This document shows positions 1-9,416 of a stretch of DNA of 64,000 nt, in pieces. Positions within the stretch are counted from its first letter, which is position 1. Each line of letters opens with the position of its first letter. The notes under the pieces were generated by a model. That model searched no databases, was not told the origin of the DNA, and worked only from the letters and a program-made list of their open reading frames with translations. Both the position numbers and the translations under genes were made by a program. The DNA comes from Myxococcota bacterium. Lineage in GTDB: Bacteria; Myxococcota_A; UBA796; CAJQPC01. Location of the stretch: assembly GCA_036229005.1 (NCBI GenBank), contig JAZAMN010000022.1:6572-70571 (forward strand), written 5' to 3'.

Positions 1-430
1 CGCCCACGGCGCTGAGCAGGCCCTGGTCGTCCTGCTCCAGGCGGGTGAGCCCCAGGGCGCCGCGGCTGCACTCAAAGTGGGTGACCAGCCAGAGGGCGTC
101 GGGGTGCTGGATCAGCGCGTTGAAGTCGGCCTCGTTGCAGAACTCCGTGAAGGGGTCCCGGTTGGCCATCAGGGCGCTGCCGTCGGGGTGGGTCAGCGCG
201 CCAAAGCCCTGCTCACCCACGGCCCGCAGAGGGTGCCAGCCGGTGTTGGGGGTGGCCCACTCGGCGGCGTCGGGGTGTACCGCGGCGGCAGCGACCTCCA
301 GCTCGGGCAGCGCGCTCAGGTCCAGACCTTGGAACTGCAGGGCGGCGCGGGCCTTGGGGGCGGGCGCGGGCTCCGGCTCCGGGGTGGGCGCGGGCTTGGG
401 GCAGGCAAGGAAGAGCAGCAGGGAGATCAT
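1..430 (-). CDS. lipoprotein of unknown function, truncated by the window edge (N-terminal ~143 codons present)
   Basis: Minus-strand ATG at 430..428. It reads MISLLLFLACPKPAPTPEPEPAPAPKARAALQF... with lipobox LFLAC. The frame stays open to position 1, so it is absent from the ORF track (no stop in the window). Confidence 0.6.
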   Translation of the reverse strand, partial: MISLLLFLACPKPAPTPEPEPAPAPKARAALQFQGLDLSALPELEVAAAAVHPDAAEWATPNTGWHPLRAVGEQGFGALTHPDGSALMANRDPFTEFCNEADFNALIQHPDALWLVTHFECSRGALGLTRLEQDDQGLLSAVG

Positions 431-531
431 CGGGACACCTCGGTTCACCTCGCTCTCACTATCTCGCGCAGAGATCTCTGTAGACCCCGGCGCCAGCGAG
501 GTGCGGCGCGGTGTCTCTGGGGTGCGATCCC

Positions 532-3500
532 CTACTCTCGCCAGTCCAAGAGGTTCCGGCGCCACAGGGTGCGCGTGACCTTGGCCTGGGCGCGCAGGGG
601 CACCTGGACCTGGCCGCTGCTGGTCACCAGTCCGCGTCCCCGGAGCACCTGCAGAGAGCCGCGCACGGCGGCCGGGGGCATGTTGTTGACCATGCCCAGC
701 TCGGCCTCGCTCAGGCTGTTCTGCATGCGGACGGCGGAGAGCACAAAGAGCTCGGCCTGGCCAAGGTCCTTGGCCAGATCCTCGGCGACGGCGCTGCCCA
801 TGCGCACCTGGACGTGGCCGTCGTCCACCACGCGGAGGGACTCGACCCAGAGGCGCAGGGCCACCGCGGGGTTGCCCAGGGAGGCCTCGCCCAGCACGCG
901 GAAGAAGGCGACGGTGGCCCGCTCCAGCTCGCCGTCCTGGTCACCGGAGAGCGCGCCGCCGCGGACCAGCGCCGTGAAGTCGACCTGGTAGCCGGCGGCC
1001 TGGGTGCGGGAGACGACCAGCTTGCGGAGCTGGGACTCGGTCATCTGCGGGACCTCGACCACGTGGTGGAAGAGGTGGACCTTGAGCAGGCGCTCCAGGC
1101 GGGAGAGGTAGGCCCAGGCGGGCAGGTGGAAGCAGACGACCCAGAAGTGCTGGTCGCCCATGCGGCCCACGACCTCGAAGAGGGCGCGCATGCCCTCGAA
1201 GCCGCCGACCTTGCGCAGGAAGGCGCGCTCGCCGGCTTCGATGATGAACACGGTCTTGGGGCGGTCCTTGAGGCGGGCCTCCAGGGTCTCCAGGTCCACG
1301 CACTCGCCCAGCTCCAGGGAGTCGGCGAGCCAGCAGACCAGGTCGCGCTCACTGAGGATGCGCCGCTCGATGGCCATGCGCCGCAGCCCCAGGCCCCGAC
1401 TGGCGAGTTCCTTGGCGACGCTCTCCAGCCAGGTCCCGTGCCCGGCGCCGCGGTCCCCGACCAGAGCCATGGTGCCCTGCGCTTCGTCCCGCTCCCAGGC
1501 GCCCAGGGCCTTGTAGAAGATCTCGTCCAGCTCGGGGCGGGGGACGGGCTCGGGGTCGGCGGGCTCCAGGATGGCGGCGCGCAGGGACTCGGGGACCGGA
1601 CGCAGCTCGGCCTCGGCCTCGGGCTTGTCCGACATGGAGTAGCGGTAGAACACGTTGAGGGCGCGGCCCAGGGCGCTGCCCTCGGTGGCCTTGGACTGGA
1701 GCAGGCCCCAGAGAGCGGCGGAGCCCAGCAGCAGCAGATCGGCCGTGGCGCGGATCCAGCGGGTCAGGGTGGGCTGGGCGGGCTCGGAGGTGAGGAAGGC
1801 GCGGATGCGGTCGTCGCCCCCCTGCCGCCGCAGCATGGAGCGCAGGGTCGGCTCCCAGGCGTGCAGCAGGACCAGCACGAGCACGATCAGCGCCGCGGTG
1901 AAGCCCATCATCGTCAGGCGGTGGAGGGCGTCTGCCTTGAGCAGGTCCAGGGTCAGGAAGCCGACGAACTGGCGCAGGATCCCCCACCCCGCCAGCAGGC
2001 GCAGGGTGCGCTCGCCCAGGGTGAAGCCGGCCTCGGAGACGTGGGCCAGCGCCGGGCGGTTGGCCGGGTTGCGGGCGACCAGCAGGTGGTAGAGGCGCAC
2101 CAGGAAGCGCAGCAGCAGGAACTGCCACCAGCCCAGCATCAGCAGGGCGGCCTCGGGGAAGAAGGCCTCCATGGGGCGCAGCAGAGCGCCGACCACGAGC
2201 AGGTCCAGCAGGGCGCGGGAGGCCGAGGCCAGGGGGAGCTGGAGCCGCTCGGTGGCCTGGCGCTCGACCCGGTGCTGCTCGCGGGCGCGCAGGTCGATGA
2301 CCCGCTGGGTGATGGTCGGGAGCCGGTCCCGCAGCCAGCGCCAGATCAGCACAAAGAGGCCAAAGCGCAGCAGCCCCCAGGCCAGCGTGCCCCAGAAGGA
2401 GAGGCTGCGGAGGTTCTCCCGCAGGTGCCCCAGGCGGCTGTCGCTGGTGCTGACCAGGCGCGGGACGACGACCTTGAACTCCAGGCGCAGCTCGTCGACC
2501 AGGGCGGCGCGGTCGTTGGCGCGCTCGGCGGCGCTGATCTCCCCCCGCAGCTCCCGCCGCTCGGCCTTGGCCTGCTCCAGCAGCTCCACGACCTGGGTCT
2601 GGTGCTCGAAGGCGCGGGTCTCTTCGAGGCTGGCGATGGTCTCCATGGCCTGGAGGACCTCGTCCCAGGTCTTGAGCCGCTCGGTGACCTTGGCGCGCTC
2701 GGGCCCCTCGGCCATCTCCTGCACGCGCTCGCGATCCAGCTCGAGCTGAGCCCGGCTGCCCTCGACCTGACGCCGGATGGCGGCCGCGATCTCCTGGCGG
2801 TCGGTGACGGAGTCCGCCGCGGAGATTGCGGCCCTGCGCAGCAGCCCGACCTGGCCCCGGAGCTCGGCGTAGGCCTGGTCGATGGCCTCCTGGCGGTCCC
2901 CGGCCAGCGCGCTCTTGGCGCGGGCCTGGACCACGTCGCTCTTGGCCTCGGTCAGGTCGGTGCGCAGGCCGCTGAGCAGCTCGGCGGCGGCATCACTGTG
3001 CTCCTCCAGCTTGTCGTTGTCGCTGGTGGCGCGGTCGTGATCGTCCGCGACCGAGGTGAGCACCTGAGCCACCCAGCGCGCCTGCTGGTCGGTGGCAGCG
3101 GAGCGGGCCTCGTCGGCCTCCCGGCGCGCCTGGTTGTCGGCGTCCAGGGCCTTGAGGGTCTCAGCGTCCTGGGCCTGCTGGGCCTCGGCGGCCTCCAGCG
3201 AGCGCTGGTAGGCGTCCTGCAGCCGGGCGAGCTCCAGGCTGTCCAGGGCGGCCCAGGCCTGGGAGACGGGTTCCTCGGTGCGCTGCGCCAGCCTGTCCTC
3301 GACGGCGCCGATCTGTGCCTCCAGGTCGGCGGGGGCCGCGATGTCCAGCGGTGGGGACGCCTGCATCGAAGCGCGCTGATCCTCGATCCACCCCAGCAGA
3401 GGCTCCTGCACCGACCCATCCGAGAGGGGCAGCAGCAGGCTGAGGCGCTGGGCGGCGAAGGGGGCGCGGACGGGGTCCTGGAGGGCGGAGGCGTCCAGCT

Positions 3501-4131
3501 CCAGCGAAGCGCCGGGGAGCACCGCCAGGCCGACGATGCGGTCCCCCAGCTTGGCGTAGGCGGCCCGCTCGGCGTCCAGAGCAGCGAGAGAGGCGGCGAG
3601 GGCGGGCTGGTCCGCAGCATCCGCCTGGGCCCACCGCTCGGCCTGGACTGCACGCGCCATCTCCAGGGACTCGATGGCATCGGCGAGGTGCGACCGGGTC
3701 AGGGCGGGGTGCTGCTCCAACAGGGCCTGGACGGAGAGCAGGAGGCGGCGCTCGGCGGCGTCGGCGCTCTCTTCGGCGTCCAGGGCCCGGGTGCGGGCGG
3801 CGCTGAGCTGACGCTGGGTGCGGGCGTCGAGCTCGCCCAGGGGCGCGCGGGCCTCCACGGCGCGCAGACGGGCCGCCTGGTCCAGGCGGGAGAGCTGCCC
3901 GGCCAGCCACGCGGGGTCCAGCCAGTCTCCGCCGGAGAGCTCGGGAAACGCGGCCTCCACCGGTGCCTTTCCAGCGTAGAAGCGCTGTGCGGCGCTGCTG
4001 CGGGCCTTGGCGGTGGCGGCGCGGGCAGCGTAGCTGGGCAGATCGCGCTGCTCAGCCAGGGCCTGATCGAGGCCTTGGGCTGCCAGCGGGGGCGACGCCA
4101 ACGTGAAGATCAGGAGGAGGATTTGGATCAT
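532..4131 (-). CDS. large membrane protein: signal peptide, ~530-aa coiled-coil region, multi-TM block, C-terminal ORC/Cdc6-like P-loop domain with degenerate Walker A, and a winged-helix-like tail
   Basis: 1199-aa ORF. N-terminus is MIQILLLIFTLASPPLAAQG. A long A/E/R/Q/L-rich heptad-like stretch follows. Hydrophobic helices lie around aa 570-800 (e.g. FWGTLAWGLLRFGLFVLIW, LLMLGWWQFLLLRFLV, MMGFTAALIVLVLVLL). The motif MALVGDRGAGHGTW sits where GxxGxGK[ST] is expected, followed by a Walker-B-like TVFIIEAGE. The tail ELFVLSAVRMQNSLSEAELG...LQVLRGRGLV resembles a wHTH. Confidence 0.75.
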   Translation of the reverse strand: MIQILLLIFTLASPPLAAQGLDQALAEQRDLPSYAARAATAKARSSAAQRFYAGKAPVEAAFPELSGGDWLDPAWLAGQLSRLDQAARLRAVEARAPLGELDARTQRQLSAARTRALDAEESADAAERRLLLSVQALLEQHPALTRSHLADAIESLEMARAVQAERWAQADAADQPALAASLAALDAERAAYAKLGDRIVGLAVLPGASLELDASALQDPVRAPFAAQRLSLLLPLSDGSVQEPLLGWIEDQRASMQASPPLDIAAPADLEAQIGAVEDRLAQRTEEPVSQAWAALDSLELARLQDAYQRSLEAAEAQQAQDAETLKALDADNQARREADEARSAATDQQARWVAQVLTSVADDHDRATSDNDKLEEHSDAAAELLSGLRTDLTEAKSDVVQARAKSALAGDRQEAIDQAYAELRGQVGLLRRAAISAADSVTDRQEIAAAIRRQVEGSRAQLELDRERVQEMAEGPERAKVTERLKTWDEVLQAMETIASLEETRAFEHQTQVVELLEQAKAERRELRGEISAAERANDRAALVDELRLEFKVVVPRLVSTSDSRLGHLRENLRSLSFWGTLAWGLLRFGLFVLIWRWLRDRLPTITQRVIDLRAREQHRVERQATERLQLPLASASRALLDLLVVGALLRPMEAFFPEAALLMLGWWQFLLLRFLVRLYHLLVARNPANRPALAHVSEAGFTLGERTLRLLAGWGILRQFVGFLTLDLLKADALHRLTMMGFTAALIVLVLVLLHAWEPTLRSMLRRQGGDDRIRAFLTSEPAQPTLTRWIRATADLLLLGSAALWGLLQSKATEGSALGRALNVFYRYSMSDKPEAEAELRPVPESLRAAILEPADPEPVPRPELDEIFYKALGAWERDEAQGTMALVGDRGAGHGTWLESVAKELASRGLGLRRMAIERRILSERDLVCWLADSLELGECVDLETLEARLKDRPKTVFIIEAGERAFLRKVGGFEGMRALFEVVGRMGDQHFWVVCFHLPAWAYLSRLERLLKVHLFHHVVEVPQMTESQLRKLVVSRTQAAGYQVDFTALVRGGALSGDQDGELERATVAFFRVLGEASLGNPAVALRLWVESLRVVDDGHVQVRMGSAVAEDLAKDLGQAELFVLSAVRMQNSLSEAELGMVNNMPPAAVRGSLQVLRGRGLVTSSGQVQVPLRAQAKVTRTLWRRNLLDWRE

Positions 4132-4220
4132 TCTGGCGAGAGCGTATCTCGACTGAGCTGCTGCGCGCTCACAGGTGCTTGACGCGGGTTAGCTGGGCAA
4201 CCCAATTCAAAGGAGCGCTT

Positions 4221-4912: not shown

Positions 4913-6100
4913 GTGGGACGCCTGCCGACGCGCACGCTGCTGAACAACACCCTGGGCTTCGCCCTGGCCTTCGCGGCCTGGGTGGCGCTGGGTCCTGCTG
5001 CGCGCAGCGTGGGGGCGGAGCTGGGCCTGAGCCCCGGGGCCACCGAGTGGCTGCGGGCGACGCCCATGCTCACAGGCTCGGTCCTGCGCATCCCCATCGG
5101 GGTGCTCGCGGACCGGCTCGGCGCCCGCCGCACCTTCTCGGCGCTGCTGCTCGCGGGCGCGGGGGGCGCGCTGGTCCTGGCCAGCGCACAGGGTACGGTC
5201 GCCGCCTTCTCCGGCGCGCTGATCCTGGGCCTTGTGGGCACGACCTTTGTGGTCGGGGTGCAGGCCGTGAGCGCCCAGACTCCGGGCCCCCTGCGCGGCA
5301 CGGCGCTGGGGCTCTTCGGCGCCGGCAACCTGGGCACCGCCCTGACCACGATGGGGCTGCCCTGGGTGCTGGAGGCGTGGGGCTGGCGCCCGGCGATGGT
5401 GGGCTACGCGGCGGTCCTGGGGCTGAGCGCGGTGGGCTACTGGGCCGCCGCGGGCGACAGCGATGCGGACAAGCCCCGGGTGACCTCGTCTGCGGGCTCA
5501 GCGCTCAAGCCGCTCGCGCACCCGGATGCCTGGCGGTTGTCCCTGGCGTATGCAGCGAGCTTTGGCGGCTTCCTCTGCCTCTCCCTGACCCTGACGGACT
5601 GGTACGCGGATCTGGGGCGCGAGCTCAAGGCCGCGGGCACCCTGGCGACGGTGTTCACCTTCACCGCCTCTCTGGCGCGCATCCCGGGGGGTTGGGTGGC
5701 GGACCGCTGGCCCACCCGTCCCTGGCTGCGCATCTCGCTCGCGGTGGCGGGGCTGCTGGTGCTCCCCACGCTGCTGCGCTGGCCCCTGGGGATCGCGGTC
5801 CCGGCGCTCTTTGCGGCGGCCCTGAGCATGGGCGTGGCCATGACGGCGACCTTCCGCGCGATCCCGGAGCGCTTCCCCACGCAGGTGGGCGCGGTCGGGG
5901 GATTGGTCGGGGCGCTGGGTGGACTGGGGGGCTTCTTCCTGCCTCCCCTTGGGGCCGCGCTGGAGACCGCGACCGCCTGGCAGGGCGTGCGATTCCTGCC
6001 GCTGGTCCTGCTCGGGCTCGTGGCCGCAGCCCTGGCCCCGAGAACGCGCCGCGCCGCGGCGGACGATGTGAATGAGCCAAGCCTTCGGAGGGCGGCATGA
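4913..6100 (+). CDS. MFS transporter, nitrate/nitrite porter (NarK/NNP)-like
   Basis: 395 aa, about 12 hydrophobic helices. MFS loop motif [13 protein letters not shown]. Two nitrate-signature-like glycine motifs: [11 protein letters not shown] and [19 protein letters not shown] start. Confidence 0.75.
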
Positions 6101-7617
6101 ATGAGGTCTCCTACCAGGAAGCCCTGAACCTGGCCGGGCGTCAGCGGATGCTCAACCAGCGCGCCATCAAGGAGGCGCTGGCCTGCAAGCTGGGACAGAC
6201 CCTGGACCCCCAGTCGACCCTGACGCTGCTGGAGCAGAGCGGGCGCGCGCTCCAGATGGGCGGTGAAGCCCAGGGCGCCTCGGGGAGCCTCCACCTCCCG
6301 AAGCCACCCACCGACGCGCTGTTCGGGGCGATGGAGCAGGCCAACCGCGCCTACACCGAGCTGCGCAAGCTGCTGGAGGGCTTCCTGGCCGACCAGGTCC
6401 CGCTGCCGGCGCTGCTCAGCCACGGCGATCAGGTGCACACCAAGGCCAACCGCGTGTGCACCCTCTACGCCAACGCCATCGACGAGCTGCTGGCCCGGCA
6501 GACCCGGGAGTCCCAGCGGATCCTGGAGGCCTGCCAACGCGGCGAGCTGGACTTCCGCGGCGAGACTCTGGGGCTGGCGCCGAGCGTGCGCGGGCCCATC
6601 GAGTCCACCAACGCCGTGCTCGATGCGGTGCTGGCCCCCATCCCCCAGGCGCTGGAGGTGCTGGCCAAGGTGGGCCAGGGCGACCTGCGCGAGCGCATCG
6701 ACACCAGCGAATACGTGGGCGACCACGCCCGCCTGGCCCAGGGCGTGAACCAGAGCGTGGAGACCCTGAACGACCTGCTCTGGGACCTGCGTCCGGTGAG
6801 CGAGGAGGTCGCGGACCAGGCCCACACCCTGCAGGCCACCGCTCTGCATCTGGCCACCAGCACCCAGCAGCAGGGCGGGTCCATCGAGGAGGTCGACAGC
6901 CTGCTCAAGCGCCTGGTCAGCGGCCTGGATGAGCACGCCCAGGTGGCCGACAAGGCCGCGGAGCTGGCGACCACCAGCGACGAGACCCTGCGGGGCTCCA
7001 GCGAACACCTGAGCGACTTCCTGGGCTCCATCCAGAGCCTGGAGGAGGGCGTCGAGCGCATCGCGAACTTCTTGACGGTCATCGACGACATCGCCTTCCA
7101 GACCGACCTGCTCGCTCTGAACGCGGCGGTGGAGGCGGCGCGGGCGGGGAACCACGGCAACGGGTTCGCGGTGGTCGCGCAGGAGGTCCGCGCGCTTGCG
7201 CTGCGCAGCTCCAAGGCCAGCTCACAGATGGAGGAGGTCGTGTCGTTGCTGGACCGGAACATGTCGCGGGCCGAGTCCCTGGCCAACACCACAGCGCGGG
7301 AGCTCCAGGAGGTCTCGGCGGCCTCGGCGCGGCTGGGGACGCACTCCCACACCCTGGCCCAGGCCAGCAAGCAACAGGTCGAGGAGATCCGACGCACCCA
7401 GGCGGCGATGTCGGAGCTGAGGACCACCAGTGAAGACGGCCAGCGCGCCGCCCGCCAGGTCGCCGGGGCCTCCAAGCAGCTCAGCGCCGGGGCCCAGCGC
7501 CTCCAGCAGCTCCAGGGCCGCTTCGAGCTCGCCCCGCAGACAGCGCAGCCGGTGCACGGCTTCGACCCCGAGCTGGTGGCCAAGGTCCGGGAGTGGCTGG
7601 AGCGGGGAGCCGCCTGA
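6097..7617 (+). CDS. soluble methyl-accepting chemotaxis protein with an N-terminal PilJ/NarX-type (nitrate-sensor-like) helical domain
   Basis: N-terminal [20 protein letters not shown] matches the P-box-like motif of PilJ/NarX/NarQ sensor domains. HAMP-like [12 protein letters not shown] signalling hairpin [41 protein letters not shown] see no TM helix. The ATG overlaps the upstream stop (ATGA at 6097-6100). Confidence 0.85.
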
Positions 7618-7647
7618 GCGCATATGCTCCCTCCAACTGGAGGACGA

Positions 7648-8082
7648 ATGCTCTTGCTGCTGCTGGCCTGCAGCGCCGACTGGGAGCCCGCGGTGGACCC
7701 GCTGCAGGTCCTGGCCTGGGCCCCGACCGTCGACGCGCCGGGCACCATCGACACCCCCCTGCACCTGAGCTTCAACGCGCGCCTGGATAGCCAGACGCTG
7801 GACAGCATCGCGCTGCTGAACGCCCAAGAGCAGGTGGTCCCCGCCGACATCTCCGCAGAGGGCCTGCGCCCGACGCTCTGGGTGGAGCCCGAGCGCTCCT
7901 TGCAGCCCGGCGCCACCTACACCCTGGTCCTGGACGTGGGCCTGGAGGGCGTGGGCGGGCAGCTCCTGGGCGGTCCGGTCCAGGTCCCCTTCGCCACCCT
8001 GGGCCCCGACGACGCGCCCGAGGACACCGGTGAGCCCGGCGACACCAGCGAGCCCGCGGACACCGGCGACACGGGCGATTAG
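7648..8082 (+). CDS. small lipoprotein with an Ig-like (SbsA/Big_5-like) domain and an acidic tail
   Basis: MLLLLLACSADW lipobox, with GGAGGA 5 nt upstream of ATG 7648. The pattern VLAWAPTVDAPG...LHLSFNARLDSQTL...ATYTLVLD is typical of bacterial Ig-like domains. Confidence 0.65.
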   Translation: MLLLLLACSADWEPAVDPLQVLAWAPTVDAPGTIDTPLHLSFNARLDSQTLDSIALLNAQEQVVPADISAEGLRPTLWVEPERSLQPGATYTLVLDVGLEGVGGQLLGGPVQVPFATLGPDDAPEDTGEPGDTSEPADTGDTGD

Positions 8083-8132: not shown

Positions 8133-9416
8133 ATGTGGCCCTTCACCCGCAGCGCCTCCGCCCAGGACGCACCGCCCGCCGACGCTCCCGCCGAGGCTCC
8201 CGCTGAAGCCCCTGTGGATGGAGCGCCCGCCGACGGACTCCCGCCGGATGCGCAAGCCCCAGAGGGAGTGGATCCCGGCGCTGCGGACACGGTCGACCCC
8301 ACCTCGCTTGGGGACGGTGGCCTCCTGACCCCTGATGGACTGCTGGGCACTGGCGAGGTGCAGTCGCCCGCTCCGGACACCGAGGAGCCGGTCTTCCAGA
8401 CCTCCGACACCCTGCTGGAGGACACCAGCCGGCTCGCGGAGCGCCTGACCCACATCCCCGAGGGCGAGTCCGCGCTGGAGGCTGGGCAGTCCACCCTCTC
8501 GGGCTTCCTGGAGCTGCACCTGTTCACCATCGGACAGGTGGAGATCACGCCGGGTCGCCTGCTGCTGGCCGGCCTGACCCTGGCGGCCACCTTCGGGCTG
8601 TCCAAGATCATCCGCCGCACCACGCGCCGGGCCTTCCACATGCGCGGCGTCACGGACGCTGGCCGGATCGGCGTCACCAACCGCCTGATCCACTACGTGA
8701 TCCTGCTGATCGGCTTCTCCCTGTCGCTGGAGGCCATGGGGATCCACCTCAGCGCCCTGTTCGCGGCCGGCGCCATCTTCGCGGTGGGCATCGGCTTCGC
8801 GATGCAGAACATCGTCCAGAACTTCGTCTCGGGCGTGATCCTGCTGCTGGAGCGCTCGATCAAGCCCGAGGACGTGCTGGAGATCGACGGCCAGATCGTG
8901 CGCGTCGAGCAGATGGGCATCCGCGCCACGGTGGTCCGCACCCGCGACGAAGAAGAGCTGATCGTCCCCAACGGCGTGCTGGTCCAGAACTCGGTGAAGA
9001 ACTTCACCAAGCGGGACCGGCTCTACCGCGTGCGCGCGTCGGTGGGGGTGGCCTACGGCTCGGACATGACCCGGGTCGAGGAGGCCCTTTTGGAGGCCGG
9101 CCACGCCATGCCCGGCCGCGACGACAGCCGCGTGCCCCAGGTGCTGCTGATCGGCTTCGGCAACAACACCGTGGACTGGGAGTTGTCGGTGTGGACCCAG
9201 GATCCCTGGCGGATGCTGGTGACCCGCTCGGAGCTCAACAAGCGGATCTGGAAGGCCTTCAAGGTCTACGGCATCGAGATCGCCTTCCCCCAGGTGGACC
9301 TGCACCTGGACGACGCGGTGGTGGACGCGATCGCAGGCCGCGTGCGGGTGGCGTCCAAGCCCCAGGAGGACCGGGAGACCGAGGCCGGCGAGAAGGCCGA
9401 GAGCTCCGAGGGCTGA
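8133..9416 (+). CDS. mechanosensitive ion channel, MscS family
   Basis: TM3/beta-domain signature AAGAIFAVGIGFAMQNIVQNFVSGVILLLERSIKPEDVLEIDGQIVRVEQMGIRATVVRTRDEEELIVPN. The N-terminus is an acidic/proline-rich low-complexity region. Confidence 0.9.
   Translation: MWPFTRSASAQDAPPADAPAEAPAEAPVDGAPADGLPPDAQAPEGVDPGAADTVDPTSLGDGGLLTPDGLLGTGEVQSPAPDTEEPVFQTSDTLLEDTSRLAERLTHIPEGESALEAGQSTLSGFLELHLFTIGQVEITPGRLLLAGLTLAATFGLSKIIRRTTRRAFHMRGVTDAGRIGVTNRLIHYVILLIGFSLSLEAMGIHLSALFAAGAIFAVGIGFAMQNIVQNFVSGVILLLERSIKPEDVLEIDGQIVRVEQMGIRATVVRTRDEEELIVPNGVLVQNSVKNFTKRDRLYRVRASVGVAYGSDMTRVEEALLEAGHAMPGRDDSRVPQVLLIGFGNNTVDWELSVWTQDPWRMLVTRSELNKRIWKAFKVYGIEIAFPQVDLHLDDAVVDAIAGRVRVASKPQEDRETEAGEKAESSEG

Follow-up and report, generated by a model that had tools for sequence, protein, structure and literature searches.

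We report that a 1199-residue protein encoded in a 64,000-nucleotide (nt) stretch of a Myxococcota bacterium genome (contig JAZAMN010000022.1; "the window" below means this whole stretch) belongs to a large, unnamed protein family from uncultured Myxococcota, and that the genes of this family are linked, family-wide and in translational coupling, to a gene for a small MscS-type mechanosensitive channel. The large gene lies at 532..4131 on the minus strand of the window and encodes 1199 amino acids (aa) plus the stop codon at 532-534; all features of the protein given below are on that strand. Our findings support, with a probability of about 0.5, a model where the large protein serves a dedicated MscS channel of ~275 aa as an accessory or regulatory subunit. 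The pairing with MscS is the most informative property of the family, and it is invisible from the window alone. Loci from distant genomes were retrieved via the conserved motif HFWVVCFHLPAW (from a 6-sequence subset alignment), and gene calls in five distant relatives placed a PF00924 (MscS) gene of 258-287 aa directly downstream of the large gene in each. A hidden Markov model (HMM) of this partner, built from these PF00924 genes, was scanned against all fetched loci. Outside the window's clade, all 17 of 17 complete loci have a small MscS gene (E 1e-120 to 1e-152) whose start falls at, or overlaps with, the large gene's stop codon, and in 4/4 loci of the close clade the same MscS subfamily is found 2.5-4 kb downstream on the same strand. 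Of 15 junctions, 10 are ATGA or TGATG overlaps and the others leave 3-10 nt between the genes; such stop/start overlaps are typical of subunits of one complex whose translation is coupled. For a reciprocal test the channel served as the query: among 80 metagenomic loci retrieved, 70 had at least 500 nt upstream of MscS, and in 64 of these the large gene ends a median of 14 nt before it; in one further locus the large gene lies 3.5 kb upstream, and in two a related gene lies downstream. The partner channels have ~275 aa and fall into one MscS subfamily. The related genes of the last two loci (L096:897-4142 and L098:5771-8767) represent a soluble sister family, with proteins of ~1000 aa that carry a helical, A/E/R-rich N-terminal region and the same ATPase-winged helix module, and are devoid of the membrane block. 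Their Walker A motifs also lack the lysine (GSGVTS, GCGITS), and they are encoded directly after, not before, an MscS of the partner type. Thus, the association between the ATPase-winged helix module and MscS survives both a changed gene order and the loss of the membrane anchor.

The gene itself is genuine. The window DNA is 72% GC and holds long chance open reading frames (ORFs) on both strands; in the minus-strand ORF 532..4131, GC at the three codon positions is 0.775, 0.467, and 0.946, respectively, the pattern that a real gene should have at this GC content. An identical protein is deposited at NCBI, as a hypothetical protein of a Myxococcota metagenome-assembled genome (MAG), and relatives (five at ~57% identity and many at 20-35%) are full length, homologues of ~1200 aa being common. 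Since the homologues are full length, frameshifts do not break up the gene in relatives, an outcome that an earlier, sequence-only reading of this DNA had allowed for; the 1199-aa minus-strand ORF which that reading had called is confirmed by the third-position GC of 94.6% and by the two lines of homology just given. A plus-strand ORF of 1223 aa (511..4182) runs antisense across the whole gene, with a GC1 of 0.94, and because its 94% GC falls at codon position 1 we regard it as an antisense shadow. Similar high-GC shadow ORFs are abundant in the ORF list of the window, and no genes are to be inferred from them.

The size of the family was addressed with an exhaustive search, in which a profile of the transmembrane (TM) block, ATPase, and winged helix was run against 1.84 billion cluster representatives (50%-identity clusters). 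This returned 4,028 proteins at E<=1e-3 and at least 1,821 at E<=1e-30, most of them 1150-1350 aa long and matched in their C-terminal 640 residues. All sources are metagenomes or MAGs, and the deposited names are "hypothetical protein" or "AAA family ATPase [Myxococcota bacterium]". No model of Pfam, NCBIfam, or PADLOC covers the family, and literature searches on MscS with Cdc6, AAA+, or Myxococcota returned nothing relevant, with no account of the family or of the pairing. The structural part of the sequence-only reading has largely stood: the ORC-like module, the replacement of the Walker lysine by histidine, and an architecture that it did not recognise and that indeed has no counterpart in the three curated collections. 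The protein is no orphan, given the at least 1,821 clusters found at the stricter threshold. The family seems confined to MAGs of one phylum, in single copy in the window and in every fetched locus. The MAGs that carry it (L008-L022) are labelled inconsistently, as Cognaticolwellia, Rickettsiales, Enterobacterales, Alphaproteobacteria (isolate "MYXO-39"), Deltaproteobacteria, and Myxococcota; gene content and the ~70% GC of the window, L096, and L098 point to binning or taxonomy errors behind many of these labels.

Two AlphaFold2 models were built on family alignments, one of aa 1-860 (predicted local distance difference test, pLDDT, 91.2) and one of aa 816-1199 (pLDDT 92.9, predicted TM-score 0.91). 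The latter displays a five-stranded alpha/beta core, followed by a helical lid and a winged helix. The AAA+ core (aa 866-1030; 1042..1536) is delimited by the model, Foldseek, and PF13401 matches in relatives; the lid (aa 1031-1098; 838..1041), by model and alignment, contains the conserved R1071 and R1078 and a GxP-type motif, SLGNPAVA (nt 859-882); and the MarR-like winged helix, with a conserved basic C-terminal helix (aa 1099-1199; 535..837), by the model and by MarR matches of relatives. Searched against the PDB with Foldseek, the model gave 91 matches at E<=1e-3, the best being Drosophila Cdc6 (7jgr_G, E 8.8e-9) and Orc1 (7jgr_A, E 1.4e-8), followed by Aeropyrum ORC2 and ORC1, Sulfolobus Orc1/Cdc6, and human Orc4, each over ~400 columns. 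Matches across the full module to Cdc6, Orc1, and archaeal ORC range from 8.8e-9 to 1e-6, at probability 1.00, and TnsC, PAB2304, clamp loaders, Apaf-1, and CED-4 rank lower. Single-sequence searches of Pfam, NCBIfam, and the PDB, with the whole protein and with its C-terminal 349 aa, yielded nothing useful (best MarR_2, E 0.11). Among 15 relatives run against Pfam, 8 match PF13401 (AAA_22) and 6 match MarR_2, with MarR and TrmB matches also seen and a weak NACHT match in one; a 67-sequence family profile matches the MarR-type YusO at E 1.5e-4. At the fold level, a C-terminal portion of ~335 aa modelled as an ORC/Cdc6-like AAA+ core, lid, and winged helix is therefore supported. The earlier proposals of an ORC/Cdc6-like domain of ~330 aa and of a winged-helix-like tail are both borne out by these matches (E 9e-9 to 1e-6 across the whole module; the tail is seen in the model), and what profile and fold comparison name is AAA_22, MarR, and ORC/Cdc6, not an unrelated fold.

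The likeness to ORC/Cdc6 comprises the order of core, lid, and C-terminal winged helix, the best full-module PDB matches (7jgr_G, 7jgr_A, 1w5s/1w5t, 2v1u from Aeropyrum, and 2qby), and two helices between beta-2 and beta-3, the site of the initiator-specific motif. Yet, identity is only 12-16%, no ORC/Cdc6 chain occurs among the 60 listed sequence-profile matches, the module shares its polypeptide with a periplasmic arm and a membrane block, and the Walker A lysine is a histidine; the genomic context of the large gene, whose conserved neighbour encodes an ion channel, points away from replication. A protein of this kind might act as a membrane-tethered DNA-binding regulator, or as a tether between chromosome and membrane, with the arm sensing the envelope and MscS merely co-expressed through a shared stress response. 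The fold, which matches DNA-binding initiators across core, lid, and a MarR-like winged helix, speaks for this, as do a basic recognition helix (R1157; column 1161, 76% basic) and a basic C-terminal tail (columns 1187 and 1190-1192, 64-93% basic). In the 1199-aa protein, however, column 1161 is Gln and column 1190 is Trp, and in STAND and AAA+ proteins a winged helix often has a structural role only. No operator or target gene emerged as a conserved candidate, and the remaining neighbours are variable, while the stop/start overlaps and the reciprocal co-occurrence with MscS are stronger than a shared regulon requires. We thus consider a DNA-directed role unlikely.

Motif states were deduced from 162 family representatives aligned to the family HMM, with column counts taken on 163 alignment rows. 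The segment GDRGAGHGT (aa 892-900; 1432..1458, coordinates verified) aligns exactly onto the family Walker A, GDRGxGK, and has His898 where the lysine would be, as had been noticed from the sequence; the canonical GxxGxGK[ST] with its catalytic lysine is thus not present in the 1199-aa protein. At this position the representatives have Lys (115), Arg (26), or hydrophobic and other residues (21), such that 47 of the 162 are without the Walker A lysine; by rows, column 898 reads K116, R26, L8, V4, A2, and H1. Histidine occurs in the 1199-aa protein only, its close clade having Arg. The residue that follows is Ser or Thr in 48 of the 115 Lys-type members and Gly in the 1199-aa protein. The Walker B-like strand VFIIEAGE (aa 961-968; 1228..1251), identified as such before, indeed falls on beta-3 of the model, at the Walker B position, and its second acidic residue is replaced by Ala. 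Column 965 is Glu in 73 rows and Asp in 53, and column 966 is Asp in 64, Gly in 32, and Glu in 18; both acidic residues are retained in 60/115 Lys-type members versus 11/47 of the others, and the 1199-aa protein, with Glu-Ala, retains a single one. A putative Arg finger, assigned by position alone at column 1022, before beta-5, is Arg in 112/163 rows and His in the window's clade.

Other positions are far more constant. In the family signature FLRKVGGF (aa 971-978; 1198..1221; from the alignment) R973 is kept in 160/163 rows, regardless of the state of the catalytic motifs. H1002, at the end of beta-4, is kept in 147/163 rows; the beta-4 strand and sensor-1 region (HFWVVCFHLPAW, aa 995-1006; 1114..1149) is defined by model and alignment. 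R973 (in FLRxVGGF), H1002, R1071, R1078, and the lid motif SxGNPxVA are near-invariant family-wide. The Val of GNPxV (Ile in some members) falls at what we take to be the site of the sensor-2 Arg in ORC/Cdc6, so that a GDAR-type sensor-2 Arg is not seen here, a placement made by motif and not by residue-wise alignment; the conserved R1071 and R1078 sit earlier in the lid. Because the Walker A lysine (Arg or His), the second Walker B acid (non-acidic), and the putative Arg finger (His at column 1022) are all substituted in the window's clade, the 1199-aa protein is probably a pseudo-ATPase, a possibility raised earlier that the three positions support for this clade. For the family as a whole, the repeated loss of catalytic residues, next to the near-invariance of R973, R1071, R1078, and the GNP motif, indicates that hydrolysis is not needed for the conserved role of the module and argues for a structural or regulatory role rather than a hydrolytic one.

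Upstream of this module, the protein starts with a stretch (aa 1-19, MIQILLLIFTLASPPLAAQ; 4075..4131) that is probably a signal peptide or else anchors the N-terminus for export, recognised from hydropathy, the model, and relatives. A hydropathy peak covers these residues, a helix is modelled at 2-10 and followed by a low-pLDDT linker (11-18), and relatives display similar h-regions with AxA-like sites. An export signal is therefore plausible, in line with the signal peptide first proposed; cleavage of the 1199-aa protein stays a prediction. The extracytoplasmic arm (aa 20-577; 2401..4074) is wholly helical in the model, with helices of 30-60 residues at pLDDT >90, and its sequence profile matches tropomyosin, myosin, and SMC proteins of the PDB, indicating a coiled-coil-like composition. 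The model looks more like a bundle of long helices than a single continuous coiled coil; hence, of the coiled coil of ~530 aa in the sequence-only reading, a helical arm of ~560 aa with coiled-coil-type matches stands. Conservation of the arm is low overall, though an N-terminal motif (Q28, P32, R37, A41, G54, A61, and P63) is at least 90% conserved. Arm length varies, the ORFs of the family spanning 755-1312 aa; many members (e.g. L046-L051 among L025-L104) have only ~755-1000 aa, with most of the periplasmic arm gone. The conserved core seems to be the membrane block, the ATPase, and the winged helix, with the arm as an expandable add-on.

This variability also bears on a second possible explanation, that the large protein is an independent envelope scaffold or structural protein whose arm anchors or spaces envelope layers, its adjacency to MscS reflecting co-regulation or an inherited operon. 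The long periplasmic helical arm with its conserved N-terminal motif would suit such a role, the ATPase motifs are degenerate in many members, and in the window's clade inserted genes split the pair and neither gene has been lost. Still, the arm is highly variable in length and much reduced in many members, the conserved core of the family lies elsewhere, and the association with one MscS subfamily holds in 64/70 loci and persists in the reordered soluble sisters. We find this scaffold role as improbable as that in DNA binding.

The membrane block (aa 578-814; 1690..2400) contains six hydrophobic helices, according to the family-averaged hydropathy profile and the model, and has near-invariant residues at W597, R601, D643, R675, R692-P693, W759, and P761. 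Loops rich in Lys and Arg (601-631 and 760-789) are compatible with an N-terminus-outside topology. An arm outside and an ATPase inside need an odd number of spans, and therefore one of the six helices is probably non-spanning, leaving five true spans; helix 787-814 is a candidate. Accordingly, the "about six TM helices" read from the sequence are retained as six hydrophobic helices, and probably not as six spans. A cytoplasmic linker follows (aa 815-865; 1537..1689), an amphipathic helix in the models with a near-invariant R830 among the conserved columns. An intramembrane salt bridge between D643 and an arginine in TM1 of MscS was considered and is not proposed, because R50, the sole invariant basic residue in the N-terminal part of MscS, is read as a residue of the loop after TM1, and R675 is available to D643 as a possible conserved intramolecular partner.

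When the two genes are read jointly, their products resemble MscK (KefA) and MscM of Escherichia coli, which likewise combine an export signal, a helical periplasmic region, extra TM helices, and an MscS core. In the family the pore domain is on a separate polypeptide, PF00924 being absent from the large protein and found in the adjacent gene of relatives, whereas MscK has no ATPase or winged-helix module. One could envisage a split MscK by descent, in which arm and membrane block share ancestry with the N-terminal half of MscK/MscM and the ORC-like module was acquired. The domain order is the same, with the MscS core in the next gene, and the two best-ranked of 350,542 PDB chains for the N-terminal model are both MscK (7uw5_A, then 7ux1_A). 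These matches are non-significant, though (E 0.94 and 0.98; TM-score 0.12-0.19), and no significant PDB match was obtained by Foldseek for the N-terminal model, membrane block included. PF12795 (MscS_porin) and PF12794 (MscS_TM) occur in 0/15 family members, while E. coli MscK matches them at 4.6e-61 and 2.3e-100, and the number of helices differs, MscK having eight extra TMs compared with ~5-6 in the family. Common descent with MscK is thus quite unlikely, more so than either role above. The resemblance to the MscK/KefA periplasmic arm noted from the sequence holds for the order of parts, homology being unsupported in comparisons with a shallow MscK profile, and is at best a functional analogy.

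Other relatives of the C-terminal module are similarly partial. PF13401, matched by 8 of the 15 relatives, is shared with ExeA/GspA, TniB, and TnsC, and TnsC (7m99, and the 7ufi heptamer) is among the fold matches. ExeA provides a precedent for a membrane-anchored AAA_22 ATPase tied to a periplasmic domain: it functions in type II secretion and has an N-terminal ATPase, one TM helix, and a periplasmic domain that binds peptidoglycan. Our family differs by a reversed order, several membrane spans, a helical arm, and an MscS partner; TnsC and TniB, for their part, are soluble transposition proteins. With STAND NTPases the module shares the succession of nucleotide-binding domain, helical domain, and winged helix, as well as a GxP-type lid motif (SxGNPxVA, where NB-ARC proteins have GLPLA), and Apaf-1 (3shf) and CED-4 (2a5y) are matched at 1e-5 to 1e-4, below ORC/Cdc6. 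Unlike STAND proteins, the 1199-aa protein ends after the winged helix, with no C-terminal repeat sensor, and its sensor-like part lies at the N-terminus, within the membrane and the periplasm. A role in anti-phage defence or abortive infection, where an NTPase-like sensor would control a channel effector in the membrane, is suggested by these two fold matches and by the common defence layout of ORC/STAND-like NTPases with membrane effectors, but we reject it as the main explanation, and deem it very improbable, because PADLOC-DB gave no match for the 1199-aa protein, two distant relatives, or the partner MscS; the neighbours are housekeeping genes (pyrophosphatase, major facilitator superfamily (MFS) transporter, PhoX, alanine dehydrogenase, and others) outside any defence island, and the family, found in MAGs of one phylum at one copy per locus, has relaxed rather than diversifying catalytic motifs.

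Overall, we suggest that the large protein is the larger subunit of a conserved two-gene membrane module, the other being a dedicated MscS-type mechanosensitive channel. From the gene, its folds, its motif states, and its linkage we infer that the two products may assemble physically, and that the larger may regulate the smaller and affect its gating. The helical arm would be placed in the periplasm, some five TM helices in the inner membrane, and the AAA+ core, lid, and winged helix in the cytoplasm. Arm and membrane block might couple the state of the envelope or the membrane to the channel, much as the fused N-terminal half of MscK does in cis, and the AAA+ and winged-helix module might serve for oligomerisation and as a regulatory switch beneath the channel. 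This switch would be nucleotide-dependent in members with intact motifs, and in the window's clade it would most likely be a fixed pseudo-ATPase scaffold. More speculatively, one may picture a ring of membrane-anchored ORC/Cdc6-like subunits around and under the MscS heptamer, with gating set by nucleotide or by a signal read by the arm, perhaps with a coupling of tension to DNA via the winged helix, and with the window's lineage as a pseudo-enzyme; such an arrangement is tentative, and we would rather doubt than expect it.

Several observations weigh against an accessory role of the large protein at MscS. Only 531 nt separate the large gene's stop codon from the window edge, and the partner MscS is not visible in the window; the sole MscS in the 64 kb (8133..9416) matches the partner HMM at E 1e-14 and is of another, larger subfamily. 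Other genes separate the pair in the window's clade, and three of the 70 MscS loci of the reciprocal test have no large gene, so that the link is not absolute. The six hydrophobic helices clash with the odd span parity that the topology demands, and the conserved basic residues of the winged helix could indicate DNA binding. Finally, the fold match to MscK is not significant, and hhalign of the family against an MscK or MscK+MscM profile gave a probability of 0.1-0.2%, with limited power, as the MscK profile is shallow (effective number of sequences of the template, 1.9). From the synteny of the window, which is closest to that of locus L013, the partner MscS should lie ~2-3 kb past window position 1.

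To our knowledge, channels of the MscS family are regarded as sensing tension on their own and as regulated through domains fused to the channel (MscK, bCNG, and MscCG), and our literature searches turned up no MscS channel reported to have an AAA+ or ORC/Cdc6-like partner. If the proposed role is correct, this would be the first mechanosensitive channel with a dedicated AAA+-type partner, and the replication-initiator fold would have been put to an unusual use at the membrane. With catalytic residues lost repeatedly in a single family, its members would provide a natural series on the function of AAA+ switches after hydrolysis ceases. The two-gene module is compact and directly testable, though its hosts are uncultured Myxococcota. 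The proposal of envelope-to-cytoplasm signalling or scaffolding, made from the sequence and itself compatible with the data, is narrowed by the linkage to MscS.

Downstream of the large gene, the window retains the N-terminal 143 aa of a PhoX-family lipoprotein (2..430, minus strand), cut by the window edge and sharing 65% identity with the PF05787 genes located between the large gene and the small MscS in loci L001, L008, L009, and L013. This lipoprotein had been put forward as a possible conserved neighbour; it is instead an insertion of the window's clade only, the conserved neighbour being the small MscS. In L001 (13281-16480) the PhoX-family phosphatase gene is on the same strand as the pair it separates, as likewise in L008, L009, and L013, and it is preceded by a LysR gene on the opposite strand and followed by a 133-aa ORF without a Pfam match. 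On the other side, and divergent from the large gene, are plus-strand genes for an inorganic pyrophosphatase (PF00719; 4179..4775), an MFS transporter (4913..6100), a methyl-accepting chemotaxis protein (MCP)-type chemoreceptor with PilJ and HAMP domains (6097..7617), a small Ig-like (Big_5) lipoprotein (7624..8082), and the larger MscS-family channel (8133..9416), a protein of 427 aa with PF00924, PF21082, and PF21088 and an A/P/D/E-rich N-terminal extension of ~180 aa. The pyrophosphatase is the divergent neighbour in L001 too, with no MFS or MCP gene called there between it and the large MscS. This larger MscS type is kept across the divergently transcribed region in the close clade, as ORFs of ~390-445 aa in L001, L008, L009, and L013.

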